41,610 nt of DNA from a virus (Duplodnaviria; Heunggongvirae; Uroviricota; Caudoviricetes): the IMG/VR virus record IMGVR_UViG_2537561977_000020; one strand, given 5' to 3'. Positions 3,506 through 19,564 of the stretch are shown one piece after another. A program made the position numbers and the translations under genes. Position 1 is the first letter of the stretch. Each line of letters starts with the position of its first letter. The notes below the pieces were generated by a model, which was not told where the DNA came from, did no database searches, and saw only the letters and a program-made list of their open reading frames with translations.

Positions 3506-4255
3506 TCAGATCAGATCGGTGTAGTAGGTGAAGTTGCCAAACTGCGGATGTGTCCAGCGCTTGCGGTTACCTTTCGGCGGTGTCGATTCGTTTAACAGCT
3601 TTTGAGCTGCTTGTTCGATCGCTGGGAGGTTAACGAGCAATCCCCGAACACCGGTGTCTGAACGTACCGGTATACTGGCGAAGCCGATCAATTTCCGGCA
3701 TGTTGAATCAGATAAACCTGTTTTCCATGCTGCTTTGCTGACGGGGACATATTCACCTTCAACATGAGGTAAATTCGCTGGTGCTGCGGGTTGAGAATAG
3801 CCGGTTGCGTCCAGACAAGCTTTCATCGTTGCTTCTGCAACGACTCGAGCAAGTTGGACGATGCCGTCGTTGATCTGAATTTTGGGTGTGGAAGGATGGG
3901 TAACAAGCGGTTGTACTTTACCTGTTTCCAGCTCACGCCAGCGCTTAACTACTTTATACCGGTCGTGGGCGCTATAACCAGTTACAAGCGTTGTGGAAAG
4001 GTCCTGATCGAGTAGTATTTCATCAATGACTTCGCGACCATTATAGATCTTCCTTTTGACTAAAAAGTCTTTATTTTCATGATGGTACATTTCTGTACTA
4101 TGAAAACCCAACTGCTCAAGAAGTGCTTTAATATCGCGCACGACTATTTTATGTTCTTTGCTGGTAAGTTCTGCAATCTCGCGACTGCTCATCATCGGTT
4201 GCTTACCAGTGCCTGCTAGTGTTAAAGTTCTTTCGGACATTGAAGTGTTCTCCAT
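3506..4255 (-). CDS. Rha-family phage regulatory protein (antirepressor-like)
   Basis: N-terminal MMSSREIAELTSKEHKIVVRDIK resembles Phage_pRha domain. Confidence 0.6.
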   Translation of the reverse strand: MENTSMSERTLTLAGTGKQPMMSSREIAELTSKEHKIVVRDIKALLEQLGFHSTEMYHHENKDFLVKRKIYNGREVIDEILLDQDLSTTLVTGYSAHDRYKVVKRWRELETGKVQPLVTHPSTPKIQINDGIVQLARVVAEATMKACLDATGYSQPAAPANLPHVEGEYVPVSKAAWKTGLSDSTCRKLIGFASIPVRSDTGVRGLLVNLPAIEQAAQKLLNESTPPKGNRKRWTHPQFGNFTYYTDLI

Positions 4256-7106: not shown

Positions 7107-7136
7107 AATATACCTATTGGTCATCGCGGATGTCAA
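7107..7136 (-). promoter_or_regulatory. sigma70-like promoter of antirepressor cassette 1
   Basis: Minus strand TTGACA (7136-7131), 18-bp spacer, TATATT (7112-7107); conserved copy at 11121..11150. Confidence 0.55.
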
Positions 7137-10059
7137 TCTTTCCGGTATCTGTAAGATTCGAATCCTCCGGCGTTTAGTGGAATGCTCGTGGCCCAGTCAG
7201 GAACGGTTGCCAGTAACTGGCTGACATGTTCTGCTGAGTAATCGGGTGAGTCAGGGGCCTCACTTATAATTTCATCGTGTACCGTCAGCACAATGCTGTA
7301 ACCGGCATCTTCGATAAGCGGCATGTTTCCGGCCAGAACGTCGCGGGCGGCCGCCTGGGTGACGTTCTCCACCAGCTTTCCGCCGTAGGTTTTGAGTCGT
7401 TGCCATTTACGCGAATAAGAGTTAACACCCATATAGGTGATATTCCCTTTTTCGATAACCGGAGACGGGTAGCATACAGCGCGTCCGGATGGTAGCTGTA
7501 TGCGCAGCCACGCGCCATCGCGGCGGATTTTAAGATAACCGCAATACAATGTTTTTTGCGGTGTGGCGATTGCAGTGCGGACGGTGCGCTCCAGTTCGTA
7601 CCAGAAATCGCAGGTCGCCGGGTGCGCCCTGCGCCAGAGACGTTTAAGTGAGTCGCAGGCGATAAATACCCGTTCAGAAAGGCCGTAGGTTGACTTACGT
7701 TTAACCGATTCGTAGTACCAGCTTTTCGCCTCGCGGATAACATCGCGGGGAATGTTTGGCAGTGCGGCGTTCGCCAGCTCGTCGAGATCGAGACTGTAAA
7801 CCAGTGCAAAAGTGATGAAGGCCGACACACCACCACCGTACCCGCAGTTGTGAACGATTAAATGTCCTGAGTCGGTTTTAATCGTGAATCTGTTTCGAGG
7901 CCCCGCATGTGCAATGTCGTAAACATCGCTCCAGCTCGTCGATACGTTTTTGCAGGTCTGCGATTTTTCTTCTGTTGCGGTTATTGTCTGCTTTGGAGAC
8001 GAACTGGATATTACCCGGTTCGTAGCCTTTGTTATTGTCGATGCGATCCATTTCCAACTTTGGGTCATTAAACCCTTTGATTTCCCTGACGTGTAGCAAA
8101 AAAGCTCTTTTATCTTCCTGCCATAGCTGACAAACGTAGATCCCCCGACCGCCGTAGTTGTGAAACAACCTGTTGGTGGGTTTATGGCAACGGCTGATTG
8201 CGGCAGACAATCGGTTAAGTAGCCTGCGACGGGTTTCGTCATCTGCAATAGCATCCGCATAGCATAAGAATTTTTTACGATACTCGTTATGCTTTTTCTT
8301 TGCGCAAATGTTACATCGGGTACTTTTTCCTTTAAGGAGATTGCTGATTGTTGCGGTGTGAGGCATTGCACCACATTTGCATTTGACAAGTATCCTTCGG
8401 TCTTTTCCGGGTACTTTTTCCAGTTCTTTGATAACGGTAAGTTCTCCGAAGCAAGTTCCAGGCTTTGGTGAAGCGTATTTTTGTTTAAAGCGATAAGGTT
8501 TGCCAGCTTCCATCCAGTAGGGGTTAGCACCTGGTGATCCGGGGTCATTTTTGCTCCGTCCAGTGATATTAAGGCTTTGTACCCCCTGTAAATCAGTCCT
8601 TCGTGTTTTACCCATTCTTCTCCGTCCCATAACAAATCCGCGCCCGAAATACTAACAAGCGGCTTATAGCCTTTATCGGTGAGCACTAAAGTATCCGGAG
8701 CTATGCAAGCCAATTCCAGCACTTTACCTATCTGGCGCTGGTCTTTGGTGACGCGCTCAACTTCAATTCCGTAAGCTTTTGCATACGCCAGTTTATATAA
8801 GTCCGGACCCGCTCCGGCGTCGTACTCTCTGAATGCATTCAGTTTCCATTCTTCTCCCGCCAGCCATGCCAGCATACGGCCTTCAATGTTCGACAAGTCA
8901 CTTACCACCAGTTTTTACCTGTTGGCGCGATAATGCAGCCACGTAACGCTGAACTGGTTAGTTCCATGATATTGTCAAACAGCAGGTCTGCACATCCGGC
9001 TTTCAGTGCTTCGATGCCTTCGTCTATTTGTTCCTGTTTTAGTGAAGGGCGGGGAAGATTCTGGGGCTGGAATAGCCGTCCGGCCCAGCGCCCGGTACGT
9101 GACGCCCCGCAGAACTGTAGCGTACCGCGTAAGCGCCCGTCGTGGCTTACGCCTTTCATCAGTGCCTTGTATTTACTGGTGCTGGTAGTACTGGCTTGCT
9201 GGCGGATAGCCAGCAGTTCTTTCACGGCAGATGGTAAATCGGGGTCGGCTATACGACGTTCCAGGGTACTGCGTTGCATGTCTGGTAGCTCCACACCGTA
9301 GGATTCAACGATGTGCTTAATCAACGCGTCCCGTTGTGTGGCTGCCTGCACTTCGCCATCAGTCATTTCCTGTGTACGCTTTGCCAGGCGCTTTTGCTCC
9401 TGGTCTACCGCTTCGATCGCAGCGCGCGCGAGTTGAATGTCCATGCAGACGCCCCGGTCGTTGATCTGCTGATCACGATGCCAGAGCGCCAGTTCTGTCC
9501 CCTGATAATTCCACTTCGGCAGACGTTTATAGACTTCGCGCATTGCCTCGATATCCAGCCCGGCGTAAGCAACAAAGCGCCGCCATTCTTCCGGGTGGGT
9601 TTTACTGGTGGCCCGACGCAGTTTGCTGTTTTTCGGGCGTGGCTTACAGAACAGCTGGATCAGCGCTTTACCTTCTTTGTCCTTCGCTTTGTCTTGCGGG
9701 ACGCCGAGTATTTCGCAGAGTTCCCCCAGAGACCCCGGGAGGCCGTGCGCCAGCGCCTGCACCATTGTGTCGCGCCAACGTTCGACTGGCGGTGCCAGTC
9801 GCGGCATTGCATAACGCAGGACGGTGCGGTCGAAGTGAGAGTTATGAAAATAAAGCAGGGTCTCAGGGGCTGCGATTGCTTCGTATAAGCCGTGTGGAAT
9901 ACCACCACCGGCAGTGATATCCCACACGTTTACGGGCCCGTCGTTGATAGCCCATGCGAACAGCATCACTTCAACGCCTTCGGCATACGCATGGGTACCG
10001 TTCGTAATAGGGATTTCGCAATAGGTTTCCAGGTCGCCCCATAGAATGTTTTCAGACAA
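7133..10059 (-). CDS. family A DNA polymerase (3'-5' exo + pol), frame-broken and intein-containing
   Basis: Exo motifs [33 protein letters not shown]; pol motifs [26 protein letters not shown] (motif A), [10 protein letters not shown]|CGYGGG (motif B split), LTVHDEI (motif C). Two track ORFs (8902..10059, 7133..8908) joined by -1 shift at T5 run 8912-8916. TTG start 10059 with GGAGGA upstream. Confidence 0.7.
7847..8707 (-). mobile_element. intein inserted in DNA polymerase motif B
   Basis: Begins Cys after KVLELA (CIAPDTLVL...), block B TPDHQVLT, ends ...HLIVHN followed by +1 Cys (CGYGGG); 287 codons. Confidence 0.6.
7878..8630 (-). CDS. HNH homing endonuclease ORF nested in the intein, different frame from Hint blocks
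   Basis: [12 protein letters not shown]...[28 protein letters not shown] plus Cys-rich N-region (CKCG...RCNIC); recognisable domain from about 8513 (MEAGKPYRF); frame is -1 relative to intein splicing blocks. Confidence 0.55.
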   Translation of the reverse strand: MGRRRMGKTRRTDLQGVQSLNITGRSKNDPGSPGANPYWMEAGKPYRFKQKYASPKPGTCFGELTVIKELEKVPGKDRRILVKCKCGAMPHTATISNLLKGKSTRCNICAKKKHNEYRKKFLCYADAIADDETRRRLLNRLSAAISRCHKPTNRLFHNYGGRGIYVCQLWQEDKRAFLLHVREIKGFNDPKLEMDRIDNNKGYEPGNIQFVSKADNNRNRRKIADLQKRIDELERCLRHCTCGASKQIHD

Positions 10060-10125: not shown

Positions 10126-10899
10126 TTAACGAGGTAAAGTGGGTGGAATATATCTGCCGATGCGGTCTTCTATGGTCGGCAGAGCACACATGCTGTCGCT
10201 GAAGCGATCATGCAACTGGTAAACCAGTTTCGAATCCATTTTTTCGAGGGCAGGCATTAACTGCGAGCGCCAGATTTCATTGATGCGCCGGAAGTTATGA
10301 CAGATGGCGCGGAGATTGTTGATGAACATTTCCTTCTCTGCGTCATTGATTGCTGTCTGCACTTTCTGAATACGCTTTGTGCTGCCGTTCCGGTAAAAGT
10401 CCTTCTGCGCAGCGACAGCCTCATCCACGGTTGGATAGCACCCGACGTAAACGTTCTTCTCTCCGTTCCATGCGTAGGCTCTGTACGGGTTGTATTTGCT
10501 ACTGTGGTGGTAAACCATTTTCGGCAGACACTCCCTGTGCGGCGCCAGTACCGTGGAGGACTGCGGAATAGCGGTTTCTTTCTCTATAAGATCAAGCACC
10601 CAACGGCGAAATTCTTTTGCTACTGGCGTTGTTGCGAACATCGCTACCAGGTGAGCACCGCGTAGAGAGAAAATGCGGTTATTCATTTGGACGGAGCCGG
10701 TTTTCCTAACGACCGTCAATTTGACGGTCGTTGTCATTTCAACTGAAAACTCATCCCGATTACGGTCATAAATACGAGCGACTGAGTCCGTTCGTGAGTA
10801 TTCCAGCGCGGTCGCCAGAGTGGCAGCGGTGAACCAAGATTTGCCGTTATGTTCGATCGTTTCGAGAATGTGGGATTTGAATACGAGTTGGGTACTCAT
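10126..10899 (-). CDS. Bro-N/KilA-C type antirepressor-like protein
   Basis: Probable start MSTQLVFKSH at 10899 (track ORF extends to 11064 through the leader); Bro-N-like N-domain; C-terminal domain paralogous to 5890..6654. Confidence 0.55.
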   Translation of the reverse strand: MSTQLVFKSHILETIEHNGKSWFTAATLATALEYSRTDSVARIYDRNRDEFSVEMTTTVKLTVVRKTGSVQMNNRIFSLRGAHLVAMFATTPVAKEFRRWVLDLIEKETAIPQSSTVLAPHRECLPKMVYHHSSKYNPYRAYAWNGEKNVYVGCYPTVDEAVAAQKDFYRNGSTKRIQKVQTAINDAEKEMFINNLRAICHNFRRINEIWRSQLMPALEKMDSKLVYQLHDRFSDSMCALPTIEDRIGRYIPPTLPR

Positions 10900-10937
10900 G
10901 GTTTTATGCCCTAGTAGATATTTTGAATTTACCCTTT

Positions 10938-11016
10938 TTGAGAGGGTGGTCGGGCGCTCAAAACCGCTACTAGTCGGCGGGCGTATTTCCCTTCGGAAGG
11001 GTGTTGTATTAGCCGC
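10938..11016 (-). promoter_or_regulatory. structured leader element, cassette 2
   Basis: GGTCGGGCG (10938-10946) / CGCCCGACC (11008-11016) enclosing 61 nt with CCCUUCGGAAGGG hairpin; arms covary with cassette 1. Confidence 0.45.
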
Positions 11017-11120
11017 ACGCCCGACCATTGAATTCTCAATATCATGGACATAAAAAATCCGCATGACTGACGGGCGCGGTTTCCGCTAGTAGAAAAGGTG
11101 TTTTGAGCACCATGAAGCGG

Positions 11121-11225: not shown

Positions 11226-11773
11226 TTAAATTAGTGCTTCAGCATCAGCACTTTCGCTGATATCGTCGAAATCGTCAGCGCTTGCCACTCCGCCGCCAGC
11301 GAATGCATCGCCGTCTCGCAGGAACTGGACTCCGCCGAGTGAGGCATTAATGCGTTTACCGAAATTATTGTCCTGTGCCCAGATATCGATAACGGCGTTT
11401 ACATAGCACCCTGCATAGGGACGTCCATCAGCCTGAATTAGTGGCGAACGATCGCGATCAAGAACAGCTGGGCGCGCTTTGTTAGCAGCGTTCAGGAAGA
11501 AATTGCCGGGAAAGCCTTCATACTCTGCTTTTTCATCACCATCATGCAGGCACAGATTGAGTTTTTCTCCAGCTGGTTATAAATGGACTCCAACTTCTCC
11601 CCCCATTTTTCCTTCGCTACCTGCTTCATAGCTTTACGGATTTCTTCCAGTTGTGGGTGTTTGGGAGACATTAAAAATACTGCGGAGAAACGCGGATCGC
11701 CTTCGCCGTTTACAGTTTTAGCTTCAAACAGAGCAGGAAAAGCTAATCTCACGTTATTTAATTTAATCTTCAT
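11226..11773 (-). CDS. DUF2815-type phage single-strand DNA-binding protein, frame-broken
   Basis: N-terminus MKIKLNNVRLAFPALFEAK; continues in -1 frame after T5 run 11562-11566 as LCLHDGDEKAEYEGFPGNFF...ending 11226; track shows only 11492..11773. Confidence 0.6.
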
Positions 11774-12285
11774 TTCAAAACTCCTATAAATTCTATGGAT
11801 TCTTTTTCCGCTGCTTTACGCGCAATTACAGCTTCCGCTACGGAATTAAATAGACCTAAATGTTTTTCTTTGCCGTGCAGCTTTATATAAGCTCTCCACT
11901 TATTACGGTGACGGCAAACCCCAACGGCACCGCTTTTATTATCAGAGCGTAAGGATTGGTTAATGTTATTTTCGGTAGAGGTTACAAGTCGTAGATTAGA
12001 AAGGGTGTAATTGCTCCGATTTTTGTCTATGTGATCTACCTCTAATCCCGAGGGGATACTACCGTTATGCATAACCCAGACGATGCGATGTAACAACATT
12101 TTCCGACCGTTTACACTTACGTGATAATACCCGTCCGGCCTTATATGTCCCGCTTGCTTATCTGCATATTTAGCATTCCAGGACAAATAGTCTCGCCGGG
12201 TTTTAAAATGGGTGAGCGGACGATATTTCCATATTAAAACGCCATTGTGATACCGGAAGCATTCATTTAAATATTCTTGATCCAA
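11770..12285 (-). CDS. HNH homing endonuclease (HNH + AP2-like DNA-binding domain)
   Basis: EVDHIDKNRSNYTLSNLRLVTSTEN and SGAVGVCRHRNKWRAYIKLHGKEKHLGLF. Confidence 0.65.
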   Translation of the reverse strand: MDQEYLNECFRYHNGVLIWKYRPLTHFKTRRDYLSWNAKYADKQAGHIRPDGYYHVSVNGRKMLLHRIVWVMHNGSIPSGLEVDHIDKNRSNYTLSNLRLVTSTENNINQSLRSDNKSGAVGVCRHRNKWRAYIKLHGKEKHLGLFNSVAEAVIARKAAEKESIEFIGVLK

Positions 12286-12299
12286 ATAACCTCCTTAAA

Positions 12300-13601
12300 T
12301 CAGATGAGGTCTGCGGTTAGCGTATCGTCGGATACGTCGTCGAAATCATTTACAGGGTTGATATTGAGTGCGGGGTGTGGGTCTGACTCGGGAACGACGG
12401 TGGGTTTACCATCAGCTCGTGTTATCAGTGCCTCGACTTTTGACCAACGGCGCGGACTGGCCTTTTTGATAAGTTTTTCGGCTTTTGTGGGACTAATAAG
12501 TTTAAAGTCGAATACTTCTTCAGTTTTGTACCTGAACTGGTCCTTCAGAAGTGCGCGAGCTGCCTCTTCATCACTCCAGGCCCGGTTACCTTGTTTTCCT
12601 GTTACCAGTTTAAACCCCGGTACCGGATGTCCGGCATTGAGTTCATTGTGAACCCGGTCCCGTACTGCCTTTAGCCAGGATTCAATAAAGTCGGCCTGAC
12701 TATAGATCTCCGCAAGCTGCTCAATGGTTAACAGAGGTACACGTGCGCTGGCATTGGTGATTATTTCGCTGACAGGCTTTGTCAGATCTTCAAAATCGCT
12801 GGCCGCTGTTTGTAAATGCTGCATTTTCTGGGCAGTGCAAATAGCTTTTGCTTTACAGAAGCGGCACTGTTTTTCTCCAGGTATGAAGTTTTCCAGCGGT
12901 AGTGTCTCAATGCCTTCGCATTCAGCAATATTGAGAACAAGGATCGCACTGGTTGCGGCCTCCAGCGCCCGTTCACCGAAAGACTGAAGTTCCTGTACGG
13001 TTAACGACCATTCTGAAACGTGGTTGAGCCTTGGCTGGTGAATAAATAATCTTACAGTTTCAAAGTCATACAGCATGCTGAATTGTTCAAGCGCACCCAG
13101 AGCATATAGTTGTAGTTGCTCATTTTGTTCTGCATCAATGCGGACGCCTTTGCCATATTTCAGGTCGTGGATTTGTAATTCGTTACCAGCGATGATTATG
13201 CCGTCGGCAGTTCCGAAAGATTCTTCCACCCCCGTTATATGTGAGAAATCAACACGTTGTTCAACCAATAGTTCATTATTCTGTGCAAGAGTCCAGACCG
13301 TATCAACATACCGGCCAACGGCTTCGACCATTTCATCATCCACCTGTGGGCCAGATGTATCATCAGGATTTTCGCGAAGGGGGTATGAGCCGAGAAACAT
13401 AGAAACATTGCATCCGGCGTAGTGTTCCGGGTGGCTTTGCCTGTTTCGTAGAACTTTTTCAGCAAGTGCGTGCGCTGCAGTGCCCTCGATTGCAAAAGTT
13501 GTTTCTTTATCCGGTTGTGTGGCCTCCAGCGCCAGACTACCCGCACACCTTAGCCAACGATGTGCAGATGATGGTGATAATCGTGCATGAACATCAGGCA
13601 T
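12300..13601 (-). CDS. DUF2800-type PD-(D/E)XK nuclease
   Basis: N-terminal [16 protein letters not shown] and C-terminal Cys cluster [10 protein letters not shown], recalled for DUF2800 proteins that accompany DUF2815 and PolA in phage replication modules. Confidence 0.6.
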
Positions 13602-14112
13602 TCATGACCTCCTGAATGTGTTTTCGCCGCGCAGCCGCTGCGAGTTGTTTGGTGGGGAAATGACCGAGAGATTTGAATTTGCCGTTTACTCGTCCGTAGG
13701 CCTGCCACGGTTTTTTCTTACCTTCGCTGAACCGAACGCCAACCACTCCAGATTTATTTTTTCTGGTGTGAGAGTTAGCCCTGTTTTGTGAAAGAGAGGC
13801 CCAGCGAAGATTTACCGCCCGGTTGTCATCTCGACGACCGTTAATGTGGTCAACTTCAGGGGCAGATCCGGGAATAAATGCTGCGGCAACGAGACGGTGT
13901 ATTTTGACGGTTACCTTTTTACCCGCTTTCCATAAGTCGGTGATTAGATATCCGTCTGTGTCATAGCGTGGTTTTAGTGACTTACCTTTAATGGGATAGG
14001 TGCAGCCAGAACCTTTGTTTAATACAGTTCTGTCGAGGCTTCTCAGGTTGCCAGCGTCTGAAATCTGGTAAATGCCTTCAAAGCCTGAAATATCCTTCCA
14101 GGCTTCCGGCAT
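13594..14112 (-). CDS. HNH homing endonuclease (NUMOD4 + HNH + AP2-like)
   Basis: [79 protein letters not shown]. Confidence 0.65.
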
Positions 14113-14114
14113 GA

Positions 14115-15017
14115 TTAACCCTCCAGTGCTTTTTCAGCCAGGGTGATTACTTCAGCGAGATTTTCATCCGTTACTTCACCAAGTTTCCTGGCTCCCTGTT
14201 TTTCCAGAATTGCAATAGCTTCTGCCCGGTAGCCCCCTTTTGCTAACTGGAGGATCAACCCTTCAGCTTGTTTGCGTAGTGCCGCGAAATCAATTGTATG
14301 GTCATCTTTGGCGTCATTATTCTGGCTGGAATTTGCTGCGTCTCTGCGTGCAAATTCTTCCTGCAGCTGAAGGTACTCAACACGGTTGATCTCGATATGG
14401 CCTTTTTTCAGCATCTCGTTCAACTTGCGTAAGGTGTGGAGTTCACTGGCTGCTGTGCCGGATACATTTTTGACGTAAAACGGCCCCGTGCGTTCTCCAT
14501 CTTTGTTACTGGCCTTTTTCGGTTTAACTTCATCACGCCCATCCGCAGGTGCATCAAGTAGCTGCTCGGCAAAAGCACGTCGCTCGCCGATGGTTGGCAG
14601 GTCGTCCCAGAACTTAAGGATGTTACGGGACAGGTCCAGGAGAGCAGGTTTAAGCAGCGCCCTGGCTCGTTTGACGCCCTGTAATGCGCTGTCGAGAGCA
14701 TCAATCTGAACTACTCGTTTATCGCCTTCAGCATCACGGTAGGCAACAGCACGTTGCAGCATGTCTTCTGTGATAGGGGTGGCTACCGGGTAGAAACCAG
14801 CCAGTGCGATAACGTCGCTGAACTCCAGATCATCCAGTGTCATTGCCGCTGACATGTTTTCAGCTTCAGTTGCTGTATCCCGACATTCCTGCACTCGTGA
14901 AATCGTGTCAGGATGCATAACAATACCTGATGCCATTGTGCGGATAAGACGTTCAAGCAGCGCATTATGTTGTGCCAGAAGTTGATTATTAAGTTCTAGA
15001 CTGGTTTCTAAACTCAT
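14115..15017 (-). CDS. hypothetical protein (300 aa)
   Basis: Long ORF tightly packed in operon; no family recognised. Confidence 0.4.
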   Translation of the reverse strand: MSLETSLELNNQLLAQHNALLERLIRTMASGIVMHPDTISRVQECRDTATEAENMSAAMTLDDLEFSDVIALAGFYPVATPITEDMLQRAVAYRDAEGDKRVVQIDALDSALQGVKRARALLKPALLDLSRNILKFWDDLPTIGERRAFAEQLLDAPADGRDEVKPKKASNKDGERTGPFYVKNVSGTAASELHTLRKLNEMLKKGHIEINRVEYLQLQEEFARRDAANSSQNNDAKDDHTIDFAALRKQAEGLILQLAKGGYRAEAIAILEKQGARKLGEVTDENLAEVITLAEKALEG

Positions 15018-15196
15018 ACTGTGGTCCTCGCTACAAGGAGAATGAAAGTGATGATCAGACCGAGCGCAGTGGCAACGGCCAGACCGGTCATCAAATCGAA
15101 GTTTTTACGGCGATAACGGAGAACATCGCGCCCCGTCAGTCGATGGAGGTATTCAGGTTTCATCGGTTGTATTCCTTTTTTCATATCGGGGAGCAC
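15014..15196 (-). CDS. small hypothetical membrane protein
   Basis: 60-aa ORF with hydrophobic C-terminal segment LAVATALGLIITFILLV; first ORF after PL-side terminator. Confidence 0.3.
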   Translation of the reverse strand: MLPDMKKGIQPMKPEYLHRLTGRDVLRYRRKNFDLMTGLAVATALGLIITFILLVARTTV

Positions 15197-15222
15197 GCTG
15201 TTGCGAGTGCGCTTTCAGACAT

Positions 15223-15248
15223 AAAAAAGCCCGTCACTTGCGGCGGGC
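15223..15248 (-). terminator. intrinsic terminator (tL-like) upstream of early-left genes
   Basis: Minus-strand hairpin GCCCG-CCGCAAGUGA-CGGGC then U6. Confidence 0.5.
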
Positions 15249-15322
15249 AAAGACTACACACAGCAATTACATGGATATCATCGAGTGCCTGCTTTTAACC
15301 ACATCAGGCGAGGTGGTTCTCC

Positions 15323-15370
15323 TTGTACCCCTACAGTGAGAAATCGTCTAATATCTCTTCACCCCTACAG
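15323..15370 (+). promoter_or_regulatory. putative promoter with direct-repeat sites upstream of ORF 15388
   Basis: TTGTAC (15323-28), 18 bp, TCTAAT (15347-52); exact 10-mer ACCCCTACAG at 15327-15336 and 15361-15370; inverted repeat around RBS. Confidence 0.35.
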
Positions 15371-15387
15371 TTTGAGAGAGATTAGAT

Positions 15388-15957
15388 ATGTCTGAAGAAA
15401 AAGGAATTCTTTCCCGGATAACTGAATCGTTATCCGGCGTGGGAGGAGCAATTAAAGGCGCGGTTGGAGCAGCAAGAGAGATTCAGAATCTGACTGTCGA
15501 CTATGCAGTTAAAGAGAAGACGCACACCTTACTCGATAAGTTAATGGATGTTCAGATGCAGCAAATGTCGCTTCAGGAGCTGCTGATTGCGGCTAAGGAG
15601 AAAATTGTTGAACTGGAAAATGAGAAAGTAAAGCAAGAGAACTGGGCCGCTGAAGCGGCGAGCTATGAACTTTACCAGCCTATGCGGGGTACTCTGGTCT
15701 ATCGCAGCAAGCTTTCTGCAGATGCTGACCAATCTCCGGTTTATATTTGTCCCAATTGCTACGAGCAAAAGAGAAAATCTATATTGCAAGCGGAAGGTCT
15801 GGTTACTAAGCCAGGCCTTGAGCGAGCCGTTAATATGGTTTGTTCGCACTGTAGGGCTTCCTATCTGTTCAACCGAAATGCTTTAGAGGCCCGACTGCCT
15901 TCTGAAGATGAAAATCCGGGGAAGGCAATCACGGATTACGATCCTTACAACCAGTAA
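15388..15957 (+). CDS. hypothetical protein with Gly-rich N-terminus, coiled coil and C-terminal zinc ribbon
   Basis: 189 aa; CPNC...CSHC Cys pairs; ATG 15388 with GAGAGAG upstream; convergent with PL transcription. Confidence 0.5.
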   Translation: MSEEKGILSRITESLSGVGGAIKGAVGAAREIQNLTVDYAVKEKTHTLLDKLMDVQMQQMSLQELLIAAKEKIVELENEKVKQENWAAEAASYELYQPMRGTLVYRSKLSADADQSPVYICPNCYEQKRKSILQAEGLVTKPGLERAVNMVCSHCRASYLFNRNALEARLPSEDENPGKAITDYDPYNQ

Positions 15958-16201: not shown

Positions 16202-16236
16202 AAAATACAAGCAAACCTGTGAATGCGTCAACAGGT
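16202..16236 (-). promoter_or_regulatory. PL-like early-left promoter with operator-like sites
   Basis: Minus strand TTGACG (16231-16226), 18 bp, TATTTT (16207-16202); operator-like TACAAGCAAACCTGTG (16206-16221) and ACCTGT/ACAGGT inverted repeat flanking -35. Confidence 0.45.
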
Positions 16237-16333: not shown

Positions 16334-16963
16334 TTATCTTTTTCTGCGGAATATGCGATGTTCTACCATTGTCCCTATGATCTTAATTGGTTTTTCCCAG
16401 GAGCGACAAATAGGGTAATCACTATTCAATGGAACAAGTTCAAAGTCTTCCTCACCTTTAGCGCCAATCCCTACCGGGCGGTATTTTTTGAACGTTGCTT
16501 CGTGGCTACCGTTACATGCCGCAACGAATTCACCAGGAGTAGGGTATACGTCAGTGTCAATTATAACGATGTCCCCCTCTTTAAATTCAGGTTCCATTGA
16601 ATCCCCACGTATACGTAGCGCAAATGAACTTTCTGATAGCTCAGCCGTGGTGAGAATGTATTCGAAATCACCTTCTTCACGAAGTAGCTCAGCGCTTGTG
16701 AAAGCCCCGGCTTGTACGTAGCTTAGAACAGGCACCCTTCGAGCTCCGTAGTTGAAATCTGTAACAACATCGCCCCCAAGAAGTAGCCATTTAGGATCGC
16801 ATTCAAGAGCTGACGCTAAAGCAAGAAGATTGCGTGGTTTAAGTGTTTTCCCATTCTCTATAGCTTCAATCGACTGCTGGCTAATGCCCGCTCGTTTCGC
16901 AACTTCGACCTGAGTTAAGTTTAGTTCTGTTCTGCGTTTTTTAGCTCGGTTGGCAAGATTCAT
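16334..16963 (-). CDS. cI: CI-type repressor (HTH + S24 LexA-like peptidase domain)
   Basis: HTH LNLTQVEVAKRAGISQQSIEAIENG; S24 motif RIRGDSMEP; start MNLANRAKK at 16963 with AAGGAG RBS. Confidence 0.8.
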   Translation of the reverse strand: MNLANRAKKRRTELNLTQVEVAKRAGISQQSIEAIENGKTLKPRNLLALASALECDPKWLLLGGDVVTDFNYGARRVPVLSYVQAGAFTSAELLREEGDFEYILTTAELSESSFALRIRGDSMEPEFKEGDIVIIDTDVYPTPGEFVAACNGSHEATFKKYRPVGIGAKGEEDFELVPLNSDYPICRSWEKPIKIIGTMVEHRIFRRKR

Positions 16964-16990
16964 GTTGACTCCTTTTCTGTCATTGATGAT

Positions 16991-17051
16991 TACAGATACT
17001 TCTGTATTTGACAAACAAGGTTGCCTGTGAGGTAATTACAAGTAAACCTGT
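16991..17051. promoter_or_regulatory. OR-like operator/promoter region between cI and cro
   Basis: Palindrome TACAGAtactTCTGTA (16991-17006), TACAAGTAAACCTGTA (17036-17051), TTGACA (17008-17013) with 17-bp spacer to GGTAAT. Confidence 0.5.
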
Positions 17052-17070
17052 AATAATGAGGGCTTACTCA

Positions 17071-17295
17071 ATGACCAGTTCTACCCTTGCTTCACGTATA
17101 AAGGAGCGCCGCAAAGCCTTAGGTATAACCCAAACTTCATTGGCTGAAAGTGTTGGCATGCGCCAGCAGTCTGTTCAATACCTTGAGTCCGGACGCGCCA
17201 CCCGTACCGGTTTCATCCTTGAATTGGCAAAAGTTCTGAAATGCGATCCTGACTGGCTATTAAACGGCGAAAATTCAGAGCAGCAAAAGGTGTAA
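17071..17295 (+). CDS. cro: Cro-like HTH (XRE family) regulator
   Basis: HTH LGITQTSLAESVGMRQQSVQYLESG; divergent from cI; start ATG 17071 chosen downstream of predicted promoter (track ORF from 17008). Confidence 0.6.
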   Translation: MTSSTLASRIKERRKALGITQTSLAESVGMRQQSVQYLESGRATRTGFILELAKVLKCDPDWLLNGENSEQQKV

Positions 17296-17298
17296 CCC

Positions 17299-19445
17299 AT
17301 GTCTGATAACAAACCATGGGGAGCTACGCCCGATGAGTGGTTCCACTTCGATCTGGTGTTGGGGATGACAGACAGGCTTTTACCTGTGGTGTCCAATCCC
17401 TGTGCAGAACTGTCGCCTAATAGCAAGCTTTCTCATAATTTTGGCAAAACTCCCTGTCGCTACAATGGCCAACGTAAGGTTGTTGGTATCCCCGACTGGG
17501 CTAACTATGTTGTTACGGAAAACGATTTTGCCCGGTGGTCGAACGAACCCGATTACGGTATTTGCGTTCGTACTGGCGACGGGGTGGTGGCTCTGGACTG
17601 CGATATCAATGACGCCGGGATGCAGGAGATCGTACGCAATATTATCCTGTCATGCCTGGGGGAACTTCCGCCACGTCGCTGGCGGGCTGACAGTCATAAA
17701 TGCCTGTACCTGATTGCTGTTGATGGCGACTACCGTAAACGTGGTCACCGCCTGGAAGGCGAAAATAAACAAATAGAGCTGCTCGCTAAGGGCCAGCAGT
17801 TTGTGGCTTGTGGTACCCATCCGGCAGGCGAACGTATTCAGTGGGACTGCGGTTTGCCCGGCGAACCTCTGAAAATTACATCTGAACAGCTCGAAAGCCT
17901 GTGGCAGCGCCTGGCGGATAACTTACCCGTGAAAGACAGCTATACCGCAGGTGCGGGACGTCAGCGTGACCTTTCCTGTGTCGATCCTTCCGCGACAGAT
18001 GATGTCGCCGACTGGCTTGACGCGAACGGGTGGACTCTGTCGGTCAGCTCTGATGGTTCCCGCAATCTGAAACCGTTTCGGGATGAGTCAGAATACAGCA
18101 ACGGTTGCAGCGAAACATCCATTAAGTATTTCCCAAAAGGGACGGGGGGATTTGAACAGGGACATTTTAAAAGCATGCACAACACCGATGCGGGGCTTAC
18201 TGATGCCGACTGGCTGGAAGGCTACGGCTATACGCAATCTCTGTTCGAAGATCTCACGGTGGCTGAAGATGGCGATAAGCCTGAATTTACCGATATTAAT
18301 ACAGATATGACAGCCCATTTTCTGGAACGCTTTATCTACGTCATCGAGGGTGACCAGGTATGTGATCTTAGCCGACCGCCATATCAGTGCATGATGGATA
18401 TGAAGTCGTTCAAAAACCTGATGGCGCCTTACCAGTTCCCGCCAGAAGGGAAAGGGCAACCAGTCCCCGCAACCAAACGGTGGATAGAGCACCGGCATAA
18501 GAAGATTGCTGAGACGACAGGCTATAAGCCCGGTGCGGGACGTATTATCGAGCGTTTCGACGGGCGGTTTGAAATAAACGAATTTTATATGCCTGAGCAT
18601 CCACGTACAGCGGATACAAGTAAGGTGTCCACGTTCCTTAATCATATGGCGTATCTGGTACCTGATGCCTGGCAGCGCGAGTTTTTCATCGCCCGTCTGG
18701 GATGGATGGTTCAGCGTCCGGAGCGTCGATGCCCGATTTCTATTCTGCATGTGGCTACCGCACATGGTACGGGCAGAGGATGGGTCAGCCAGTTAATGGA
18801 GCGCGTGCTCGGCCCGTGGAACTGTGCTCGTACTCGCATGAAGATCCTGTGCGATAACCAGTTCCATGACTATCTGTACAATACGCTTCTATGCACCATT
18901 GACGAGGTGCGCGAAAACGATAAGCGGTATGAGGTGAACGATAAGATCCGTGACGTGCTGACAGAACCACGGTTTGAAGTGAACCGCAAATATGGCAGCA
19001 AAAAACGATGGATATATACACCGGCTTTCTGTTCTACACCAACCACTTTGATGCGCTGGCGCTGCCAGAGGAAGACCGACGTATAGCTGTGCTGGGGGGC
19101 CCTGACTTCGCCGCAACTGAAGAGCATTACGCCAGCCTGTACGGTGCGCTAAGCGACAGCGACTTTATCGCCCAGGTGTACTGGTATCTGATGGGCGTTG
19201 ACCTGTCTCGCTTTAACTGGCAGCGCGCCCCCGAGACGAAAGAACGCCTTCTGATGATTGAAAGCAATAAGAGCGATGTGGAGGCTGCTCTTACTGAAAT
19301 CCTGGATAATCCGCCTGTACCAGCAATGACTTATCAACAAATTGTTAACGCAATACTGGCAGAAGCAGGAATGGATGTAGAAATTAACCAGAAGCACATA
19401 ACAAAGCTATTGCGAGAAAAACAAAAAGGCAGCCAACAGATTTAG
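17299..19445 (+). CDS. prim-pol type DNA primase with D5-like C-terminal region, frame-broken
   Basis: Prim-pol motifs VVALDCDIND and ELLAKGQQFVACGTHP; track ORFs 17299..19086 and 19008..19445 joined by -1 shift at A6 run 19000-19005. Confidence 0.55.
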
Positions 19446-19564
19446 TAAAAATTGACGGAATGGGTTATCGCTTCTGGATACTTGCAAAAAATTGCGACTT
19501 CAATAATGAGGAATTGCGCGAAATATATAAAACTTGCGAAATTTTGCAATCTGGATTGTAAAAA

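Follow-up and report, generated by a model that had tools for sequence, protein, structure and literature searches.

A small membrane peptide and an acidic helical protein are the conserved first genes of an APSE-type leftward replication/recombination operon

Proteins p16.7 and p1 of phage phi29 are membrane-associated organisers of phage DNA replication. A duf2800-gp2.5-polA module has been described (PMC8093625), and in the literature on APSE phages, protein P53 is placed in a conserved 'DNA metabolism' module, in which it is listed as 'phage protein' (PMC8579659). In the present study, two genes denoted small49 and X were analysed in IMG/VR virus record IMGVR_UViG_2537561977_000020, a 41,610-nt stretch of caudoviral DNA (the whole of which is called the window), where an initial annotation had described them as unclassified genes at the position in which lambdoid phages carry host-takeover or exclusion functions. 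We show that an APSE-type leftward replication/recombination operon opens with small49, encoding a small membrane peptide, and X, its first two coding genes, which are conserved and coupled in translation, and that these are followed by a DUF2800 exonuclease, a gp2.5-like single-stranded DNA-binding (SSB)/annealing protein and a family-A DNA polymerase. Both open reading frames (ORFs) are real and conserved and, as judged from their profile matches, they are members of common, already catalogued 'hypothetical protein' families of enterobacterial prophages. The head of the operon reads as follows.

15014..15163, minus strand: small49, most likely extent, 49-residue tail-anchored membrane peptide (phrog_11981 match, AAGGA ribosome-binding site, Kyte-Doolittle maximum)
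14115..15017, minus strand: gene X, 300-residue acidic helical multi-domain protein of the phrog_6784 / APSE-1 P53 family
13594..14112, minus strand: NUMOD4/HNH homing endonuclease (Pfam NUMOD4, HNH_3), between X and the exonuclease gene
12300..13601, minus strand: DUF2800 / PD-(D/E)XK (Cas4-like) exonuclease (Pfam PF10926, E 8e-109), the invariant downstream partner of X

Gene order was compared in two samples, 80 IMG/VR loci retrieved with an 11-sequence alignment of X and a second 80 loci retrieved with small49. Among the X-selected loci, small49 was present in 79/80 and directly adjacent in 77/80, and the DUF2800 gene was located downstream of X in 80/80, either directly (72/80) or, as in the window, behind an HNH gene (8/80). 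Where the HNH gene is missing, X and the DUF2800 gene are 2 nt apart in the relatives, and it is exactly in this spacer that the HNH gene of the window is inserted. When small49 was used for retrieval, X was found downstream in 77/77 loci with enough sequence, adjacent in 72 and with one inserted gene between them in five. The small49-X-DUF2800 order is essentially invariant among related contigs, while in the X-selected loci cI repressor identity varies between 23 and 100% and only some carry the divergent gene beside the pair. Invariant linkage across such mosaic immunity regions suggests that the pair is a module component rather than an exclusion or moron gene, and because the linkage holds while the neighbouring genes vary, a moron-like distribution is not borne out for it. 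X is also the gene immediately before that of the DUF2800 exonuclease in APSE-1 (where it is P53), in Yersinia phage YeP5 and in two distant enterobacterial contigs, L004 and L005, whose X homologues are 47 and 41% identical, respectively; the 244-residue proteins of Yersinia phages YeP4-6 belong to the X family as well. A small ORF upstream of X is present in YeP5, L004 and L005, and none was found upstream of P53 in APSE-1.

The mechanical maximum of the small ORF is 60 residues, from GTG 15196 on the minus strand, and this was the length initially given to the putative membrane protein. The 49-residue profile phrog_11981 aligns to residues 12-60 of this reading (E 4e-35), relatives are annotated at 150 nt, and an AAGGA ribosome-binding site precedes ATG 15163. 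On these three grounds, translation most likely starts at ATG 15163, giving 49 rather than 60 residues. The membrane assignment itself stands, as a transmembrane segment is found at residues 38-56 of the 60-residue reading, where the highest Kyte-Doolittle 19-residue window reaches 2.56; only the length has to be revised. The N-terminus of small49 is basic (MKPEYLHRLTGRDVLRYRRKNFD, net +4) and is followed by a single C-terminal transmembrane helix, and in alignments the RLTGxD motif and the hydrophobic tail are kept in homologues of 29-63% identity. The TGA stop codon of small49 overlaps the ATG of X in the sequence ATGA (15017-15014), and a GAGGA ribosome-binding site precedes the start of X by 9 nt. 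No match of small49 was obtained in Pfam (E<=0.1), NCBIfam, PADLOC or the PDB sequences, and alignment of the small peptide against Kil by hhalign was negative.

X matches phrog_6784 over its whole length (E 5e-179, residues 1-300 against profile positions 1-298 of 298). Its relatives at E<=1e-3 number 588 clusters of 90% identity, from Escherichia, Salmonella, Citrobacter, Enterobacter and related genera, every one of them carrying the name 'hypothetical' and lacking a Pfam domain. Since only 69 clusters match X among 1.84 billion representatives at 50% identity, the recognisable family is narrow. The isoelectric point (pI) of X is 5.1, equal to the family median, and its net charge is -11. 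X is a modular, mostly helical protein without a catalytic or known binding motif. An AlphaFold2 (AF2) model made from a diverse alignment has a mean predicted local distance difference test (pLDDT) of 86.5 and a predicted template modelling score (pTM) of 0.45, and such high per-domain pLDDT with low pTM is consistent with independent domains on flexible linkers. The following segments were distinguished.

14928..15017, minus strand: X residues 1-30, conserved N-terminal helix with the motif MSLExxLExNNxLLxxxNxLLxxLI (AF2 helix 3-29, pLDDT ~90)
14529..14837, minus strand: X residues 61-163, central all-helical domain (alignment and AF2)
14313..14489, minus strand: X residues 177-235, optional beta-alpha insert, GPFY...EINxVEYLQLxE (AF2 strands 177-183, 190-195 and 208-210)
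14121..14288, minus strand: X residues 244-299, C-terminal three-helix domain, LILQLAKGGYRxEAVxILxKFGAKKLGEVxDExLAxVI

The N-terminal helix is probably a coiled-coil or oligomerisation helix, and its motif recurs in gp03 of Erwinia phage pEp_SNUABM_08 and gp45 of Burkholderia phage E332. Residues ~30-60 are disordered in the model and correspond to a variable low-complexity linker in the family alignment, which also shows a conserved VKPxK motif. In the central domain, L108, W137 and R146 are the most conserved positions, together with the motifs QIDAL and WDxLPxIxERRxFAExLL. In the type of X carried by the window, the beta-alpha insert follows the central domain; other members have it ahead of that domain, and many lack it. 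No portion of X is more widely shared than the C-terminal three-helix domain, which is neutral to acidic (net -2) and matches phrog_408 (E 3e-5).

Database searches bore out the early impression of a 300-residue protein without recognisable motifs, and turned up no homologue among the standard replication or recombination proteins. X had no match in Pfam at E<=0.1, in NCBIfam, in the defence models of PADLOC at E<=1, or among PDB sequences at E<=10, the last by single sequence or by a 42-sequence profile. The best Foldseek match of the AF2 model in the PDB had an E of 0.98, with the whole model as query; as the alignment is local, a single-domain query would gain only about three-fold in E. 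Foldseek against BFVD, a set of predicted viral structures, matched only uncharacterised phage proteins, mostly of 104-165 residues (for example from phages eiAU, AH2 and PaMx28), which share ~60 residues with X (probability ~1.0, E 0.04-1). Candidate identities were also tried one at a time. The X profile gave an hhalign probability of 0.1% against Gam of the O157 prophage, there being no Pfam match either, and hhalign was negative for the ea10-like DUF2528 protein. Three possible fusion partners proved to be a deletion fusion of X and DUF2800 (P0132), a repeat artefact (P0178) and a protein without a Pfam domain (P0187). Literature searches on X, small49 and phages with the DUF2800 module yielded no paper on the function of either family.

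Sequenced phage records with the DUF2800 exonuclease number at least 1743, and the hosts of phages with the module include Salmonella, Escherichia, Klebsiella, Staphylococcus, Streptococcus and Bacteroides. We looked at the head of the module in Chi-like iEPS5, Enc34, Erwinia pEp_SNUABM_08, Burkholderia E332, Jersey-like SETP3 and "pink", Dhillonvirus BMA1, Rhodobacter RcExplorer, Xanthomonas DoCa5 and Staphylococcus phage 47. In every one of them, an acidic protein of 107-230 residues without a Pfam match starts the exonuclease operon or just precedes it. X and these positional equivalents are all acidic, with pI 4.3-5.6 and a net charge of -21 in BMA1. Hidden Markov models (HMMs) of the N-terminal and C-terminal segments of X were run on 992 ORFs, a tiny local database to which the E values refer, and ranked the positional equivalents top or near the top: pEp_SNUABM_08 gp03 (1e-5), E332 gp45 (3e-5), iEPS5 gp70 (5e-4), Staphylococcus phage 47 ORF032 (8e-4) and Enc34 ORF3 (0.045). 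By hhalign, the Chi-like gp70 family aligned to the C-terminal domain of X with a probability of 57% (E 1.1e-4), and an HMM of the gp70 family reached phage 47 ORF032 at E 4.6e-5. A separate comparison for the N-terminus gave a probability of 62%. The UniRef label 'RecT protein' on homologues of Chi-like gp70 was not accepted, as there is no RecT Pfam match and the protein has only 134 residues. The small peptide was absent from the distant lytic phages inspected. These comparisons suggest that X probably belongs, as an enlarged form, to a much wider family made up of small acidic module-leading proteins, and that in strictly lytic phages the module is headed by probable remote relatives of X.

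What the pair does can be approached from its place. In the reading that we tentatively prefer, and that may well be correct, X serves the exonuclease/SSB/polymerase machinery as a non-enzymatic accessory or adaptor, and the membrane peptide anchors this machinery or acts separately. X would oligomerise through its N-terminal helix, its C-terminal domain would dock a partner protein or DNA, and small49 would either tether the machinery to the inner membrane or be an independent small early membrane effector. Several points weigh against this. Synteny, on which it draws, shows linkage and not mechanism. Within the X-selected loci, X evolves faster than the exonuclease (~73 versus ~87% identity), which would also suit the targeting of a host factor. 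The small peptide, missing in distant lytic phages, is hence no universal part of the module, and since inserted genes fall between small49 and X, small49 may be tied to the head of the operon and not to X itself. The homology of the wider family is only moderately supported, given the hhalign probability of 57% and HMM E values that come from a tiny local database. A more far-reaching proposal is possible, if somewhat unlikely: X and the module-leading acidic proteins of hundreds of lytic and temperate phages would form one unrecognised family and a fourth functional component of the module, acting either to organise the replisome or recombination or as a host-nuclease decoy of a new class; in the enterobacterial temperate branch, it would be paired with a dedicated membrane anchor.

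The region upstream of small49 has the following features.

15223..15248, minus strand: weak terminator-like hairpin (GCCCG, 10-nt loop, CGGGC, then U6), initially called a tL-like terminator
15219..15332, minus strand: RprA-like RNA element (Rfam RF00034, 47.5 bits, E 5e-5 to 6e-4)
15285..15370, no strand assigned: conserved lambdoid intergenic element of ~85 nt with two ACCCCTACAGT repeats 34 bp apart
15388..15957, plus strand: divergent 189-residue zinc-ribbon protein (phrog_1244)
16202..16231, minus strand: leftward promoter-like site TTGACG-18-TATTTT from a promoter scan, with operator-like ACAAGCAAACCTGT inside it at 16207-16220
16334..17014, minus strand: cI-type repressor
17008..17295, rightward from X: Cro-like helix-turn-helix protein
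From 17299, rightward from X: Prim-Pol/helicase

The intergenic stretch 15219-15387 is homologous to the lambdoid sieB/terminator cassette, and small49 and X therefore occupy the slot of CIII, Kil and Gam in lambda. In a lambdoid prophage of O157:H7, a segment like 15285-15370 adjoins sieB, a similar terminator (TCTTTGCCC...GGGCGATTTTTTAT) comes next, and behind this cassette lie genes for an ea10-like protein, cIII, kil, gam, bet and exo. Segments matching 15285-15370 at 80-87% identity were found in 1215/5426 complete E. coli genomes, and the element had no annotation wherever we looked at it; it probably holds the promoter and 5' untranslated region of the divergent gene (TTGTAC-18-TCTAAT, plus strand). 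Exact ACAAG-N4-CCTGT sites occur three times, at 16207-16220, 17015-17028 and 17038-17051. Two of them are in the cI/cro intergenic region and the third is inside the promoter-like site just past the cI terminator, and this promoter-like site also has an 18-nt repeat in common with the cI/cro intergenic region. We regard the three sites as candidate OR and OL operators and 16231-16202 as a candidate repressor-controlled PL, which would be the true head of the early-left transcript; that transcript would cross the divergent gene antisense for ~1 kb before reaching small49 and X. No N-like gene was found in the window after the candidate PL. Thus, with the homology to the O157 cassette and a candidate PL bearing cI operators, the early-left position initially proposed for the pair is sound.

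The terminator called tL-like, which lies upstream of small49 on the same strand (hairpin 15248-15229, U6 15228-15223), is a more mixed case. Its fold of about -8 kcal/mol is no better than that of shuffled sequence (z-score -0.16), and a consensus terminator scan did not detect it. We nevertheless take it as real because it is homologous to the rprA terminator and to the lambdoid prophage terminator at the same position; the element is there, and it is weak. The RprA-like element that contains it scores below the Rfam gathering threshold (47.5 bits against 70), its 5' stems have mismatched pairs and low posterior probability, and its 5' two-thirds align poorly. At its 3' side, 24/24 nt of AAUUGCUGUGUGUAGUCUUUGCCC are identical to the RprA consensus and are followed by the hairpin and U6. 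Over the last ~46 nt, identity to the annotated rprA is 82.6% in 5424/5426 E. coli genomes, and a copy spanning at least 80% of the phage version is present in 149/5426. At the sequence level, convincing RprA homology is limited to these 3' ~46 nt, AAUUGCUGUGUGUAGUCUUUGCCC plus terminator, and the last ~47 nt of RprA are its active processed form (PMC9262595). The fold of the whole RprA-like leader has no stability beyond shuffled sequence (z-score 0.33), and the term 'RprA-like' was not found in the literature searched.

The main rival to an adaptor role is a nuclease inhibitor of the Gam/gp5.9 kind. By analogy with lambda Gam and T7 gp5.9, X would inhibit a host nuclease (RecBCD/AddAB) or protect DNA ends, the acidic, helical and possibly dimeric protein shielding the linear replication and recombination intermediates that the phage's exonuclease/annealase pair produces. 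X stands just upstream of such a pair in lambda's cIII-kil-gam slot, as gam stands before bet and exo in the O157 lambdoid prophage, and T7 gene 5.9 precedes gene 6. The acidity of X and its positional equivalents (pI 4.3-5.6, BMA1 net -21), the coiled-coil-like helix predicted at the N-terminus, and the faster evolution of X compared with its enzymatic neighbours would all agree with this. However, X has no similarity to Gam (hhalign probability 0.1%), no Pfam match to the known anti-RecBCD families, and no fold match in the PDB, although the PDB holds inhibitor complexes. Moreover, the family seems to span phages of Gram-positive and Gram-negative hosts, whose end-processing nucleases differ, and the Lys/Thr-rich linkers carried by gp70-type relatives are atypical for DNA mimics. 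Weighing both sides, we consider a nuclease inhibitor unlikely.

Less likely again is that the pair, or at least the small peptide, serves host takeover, inhibition of cell division or superinfection exclusion, in the manner of lambda Kil/CIII or Sie-like proteins. This was the initial suggestion, and it draws on the lambdoid slot past the tL-like terminator, beside a cassette associated with sieB. Many small phage membrane effectors resemble a basic-headed tail-anchored peptide, which is what small49 is, with its strongly basic cytoplasmic head, and the peptide occurs only in the temperate enterobacterial branch. The comparative data give no support to such a function: the pair is invariantly linked to the module across immunity regions and hosts while accessory and exclusion genes at the locus vary, X has probable relatives in lytic phages, and neither a defence nor a toxin model was matched, PADLOC being empty. 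The small peptide is unlike Kil, and X is unlike the ea10-like DUF2528 protein. Since the pair is downstream of both the terminator and the promoter bearing cI operators, it should be silent in a lysogen, a point against prophage-mediated exclusion. The analysis gives no evidence of a new exclusion system. Very unlikely, finally, is a DNA-binding regulator or origin-organising protein of the early operon, acting as coiled-coil dimers that bind DNA through the C-terminal domain: X is the first sizeable gene of the operon, divergent to the helix-turn-helix/primase operon in every relative, and its C-terminal three-helix bundle in the AF2 model is compatible with a DNA-binding fold, but this domain (net -2) and the whole protein (net -11) are negatively charged, no helix-turn-helix or other DNA-binding Pfam model is matched at E<=0.1, and near the gene only cI-type operators and lambdoid repeats were found as repeated candidate sites.

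Further along the operon, and leftward from the exonuclease gene, the window contains the following.

11770..12285, minus strand: second HNH homing endonuclease, inserted in the replication operon
11229..11773, leftward from X: Enc34-type (gp2.5-like) SSB gene, frameshifted
10126..11064, leftward from X: Bro-N protein
7133..10059, leftward from X: family-A polymerase (PolA)

Compared with Escherichia phage vB_EcoM-689R2, three replication genes of the window look disrupted, those of PolA, SSB and the primase-helicase, and X and small49 are intact. The PolA gene is broken near 8908-8914 and has an extra in-frame segment of ~780 nt (7928-8707), the SSB gene (11229-11773) is frameshifted, and the primase-helicase gene (17299-19558) has two frameshifts. 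These disruptions may reflect a decaying prophage or assembly errors. Close relatives carry genes that the window lacks: downstream of PolA, one for a TIR-like domain protein (L001, ON470582.1, 11628-12389), or downstream of SSB, one for a putative nucleotide-modification protein of the Nmad5 family (L010, NZ_CP047378.1, 7206-7844). In the replication module of APSE-1 (L002), an Rfam tRNA on the minus strand (3630-3701, 49.8 bits) overlaps the 3' end of P49 (3418-3690).

The divergent 189-residue protein has an N-terminal coiled-coil-like region and CxxC...CxxC zinc-ribbon motifs, and its gene occupies the sieB-like slot. It is found in only some relatives, at 42-98% identity. It had no match in PADLOC, and a comparison with SieB by BLASTP was negative. 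The variable, moron-like gene at this locus is 15388-15957, and it is a better candidate for exclusion or defence than small49 or X.

In annotating the window, small49 and X should be grouped with the replication/recombination module instead of being labelled exclusion genes. The most promising lead is the uncharacterised gene at the head of this very common phage replication module. If a role could be assigned to it, all parts of a module that is among the commonest for phage replication would be accounted for, and this could explain how recombination intermediates are protected or organised. The RprA-like 3' element is a separate lead, to a possible interference of the phage with host small RNA (sRNA) networks. 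Compared with the RprA sRNA (RF00034), the phage element, known here from sequence, is sub-threshold, with a poor 5' part and a hairpin weaker than that of rprA, and it shares with it the AAUUGCUGUGUGUAGUCUUUGCCC identity, the GC hairpin and the U-run, which match the last ~47 nt of RprA.

Among described proteins, p16.7 and p1 of phi29 offer an analogy to the pair, with a membrane anchor, a coiled coil, a small C-terminal helical domain and an early position beside replication genes; in contrast to them, anchor and soluble part are two separate polypeptides here. Lambda Gam and T7 gp5.9 resemble X in that their genes lie just upstream of the phage exonuclease/annealase and encode small-to-medium acidic helical proteins, but they have no sequence, profile or fold similarity to X, which is larger and has several domains. 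The module-leading proteins iEPS5 gp70, Enc34 ORF3, pEp_SNUABM_08 gp03 and phage 47 ORF032 are closer. Although they have only 107-180 residues and are without the central domain and the insert, they are likewise encoded first or near-first in a DUF2800-SSB-PolA operon, are acidic, and resemble X in the N-terminal amphipathic helix MS(L/G)(E/I)...N..LL, a low-complexity linker (Lys/Thr-rich in the gp70-type relatives) and the C-terminal helical domain FG(A/L)xK(L/I)..E(D/E)..(L/F)..(I/V). Closest of all is P53 of APSE-1 (phrog_6784 / phrog_33976, with the 244-residue protein of YeP4-6). P53 differs from X in its long Pro/Lys/Glu-rich linker, the lack of a beta-alpha insert and another spacing of the domains, whereas it shares with X the place directly upstream of the DUF2800 exonuclease (P51), the N-terminal helix motif, a similar length, the central domain (47% identity over 51 residues, X residues 104-154) and the C-terminal domain (56% over 57 residues).

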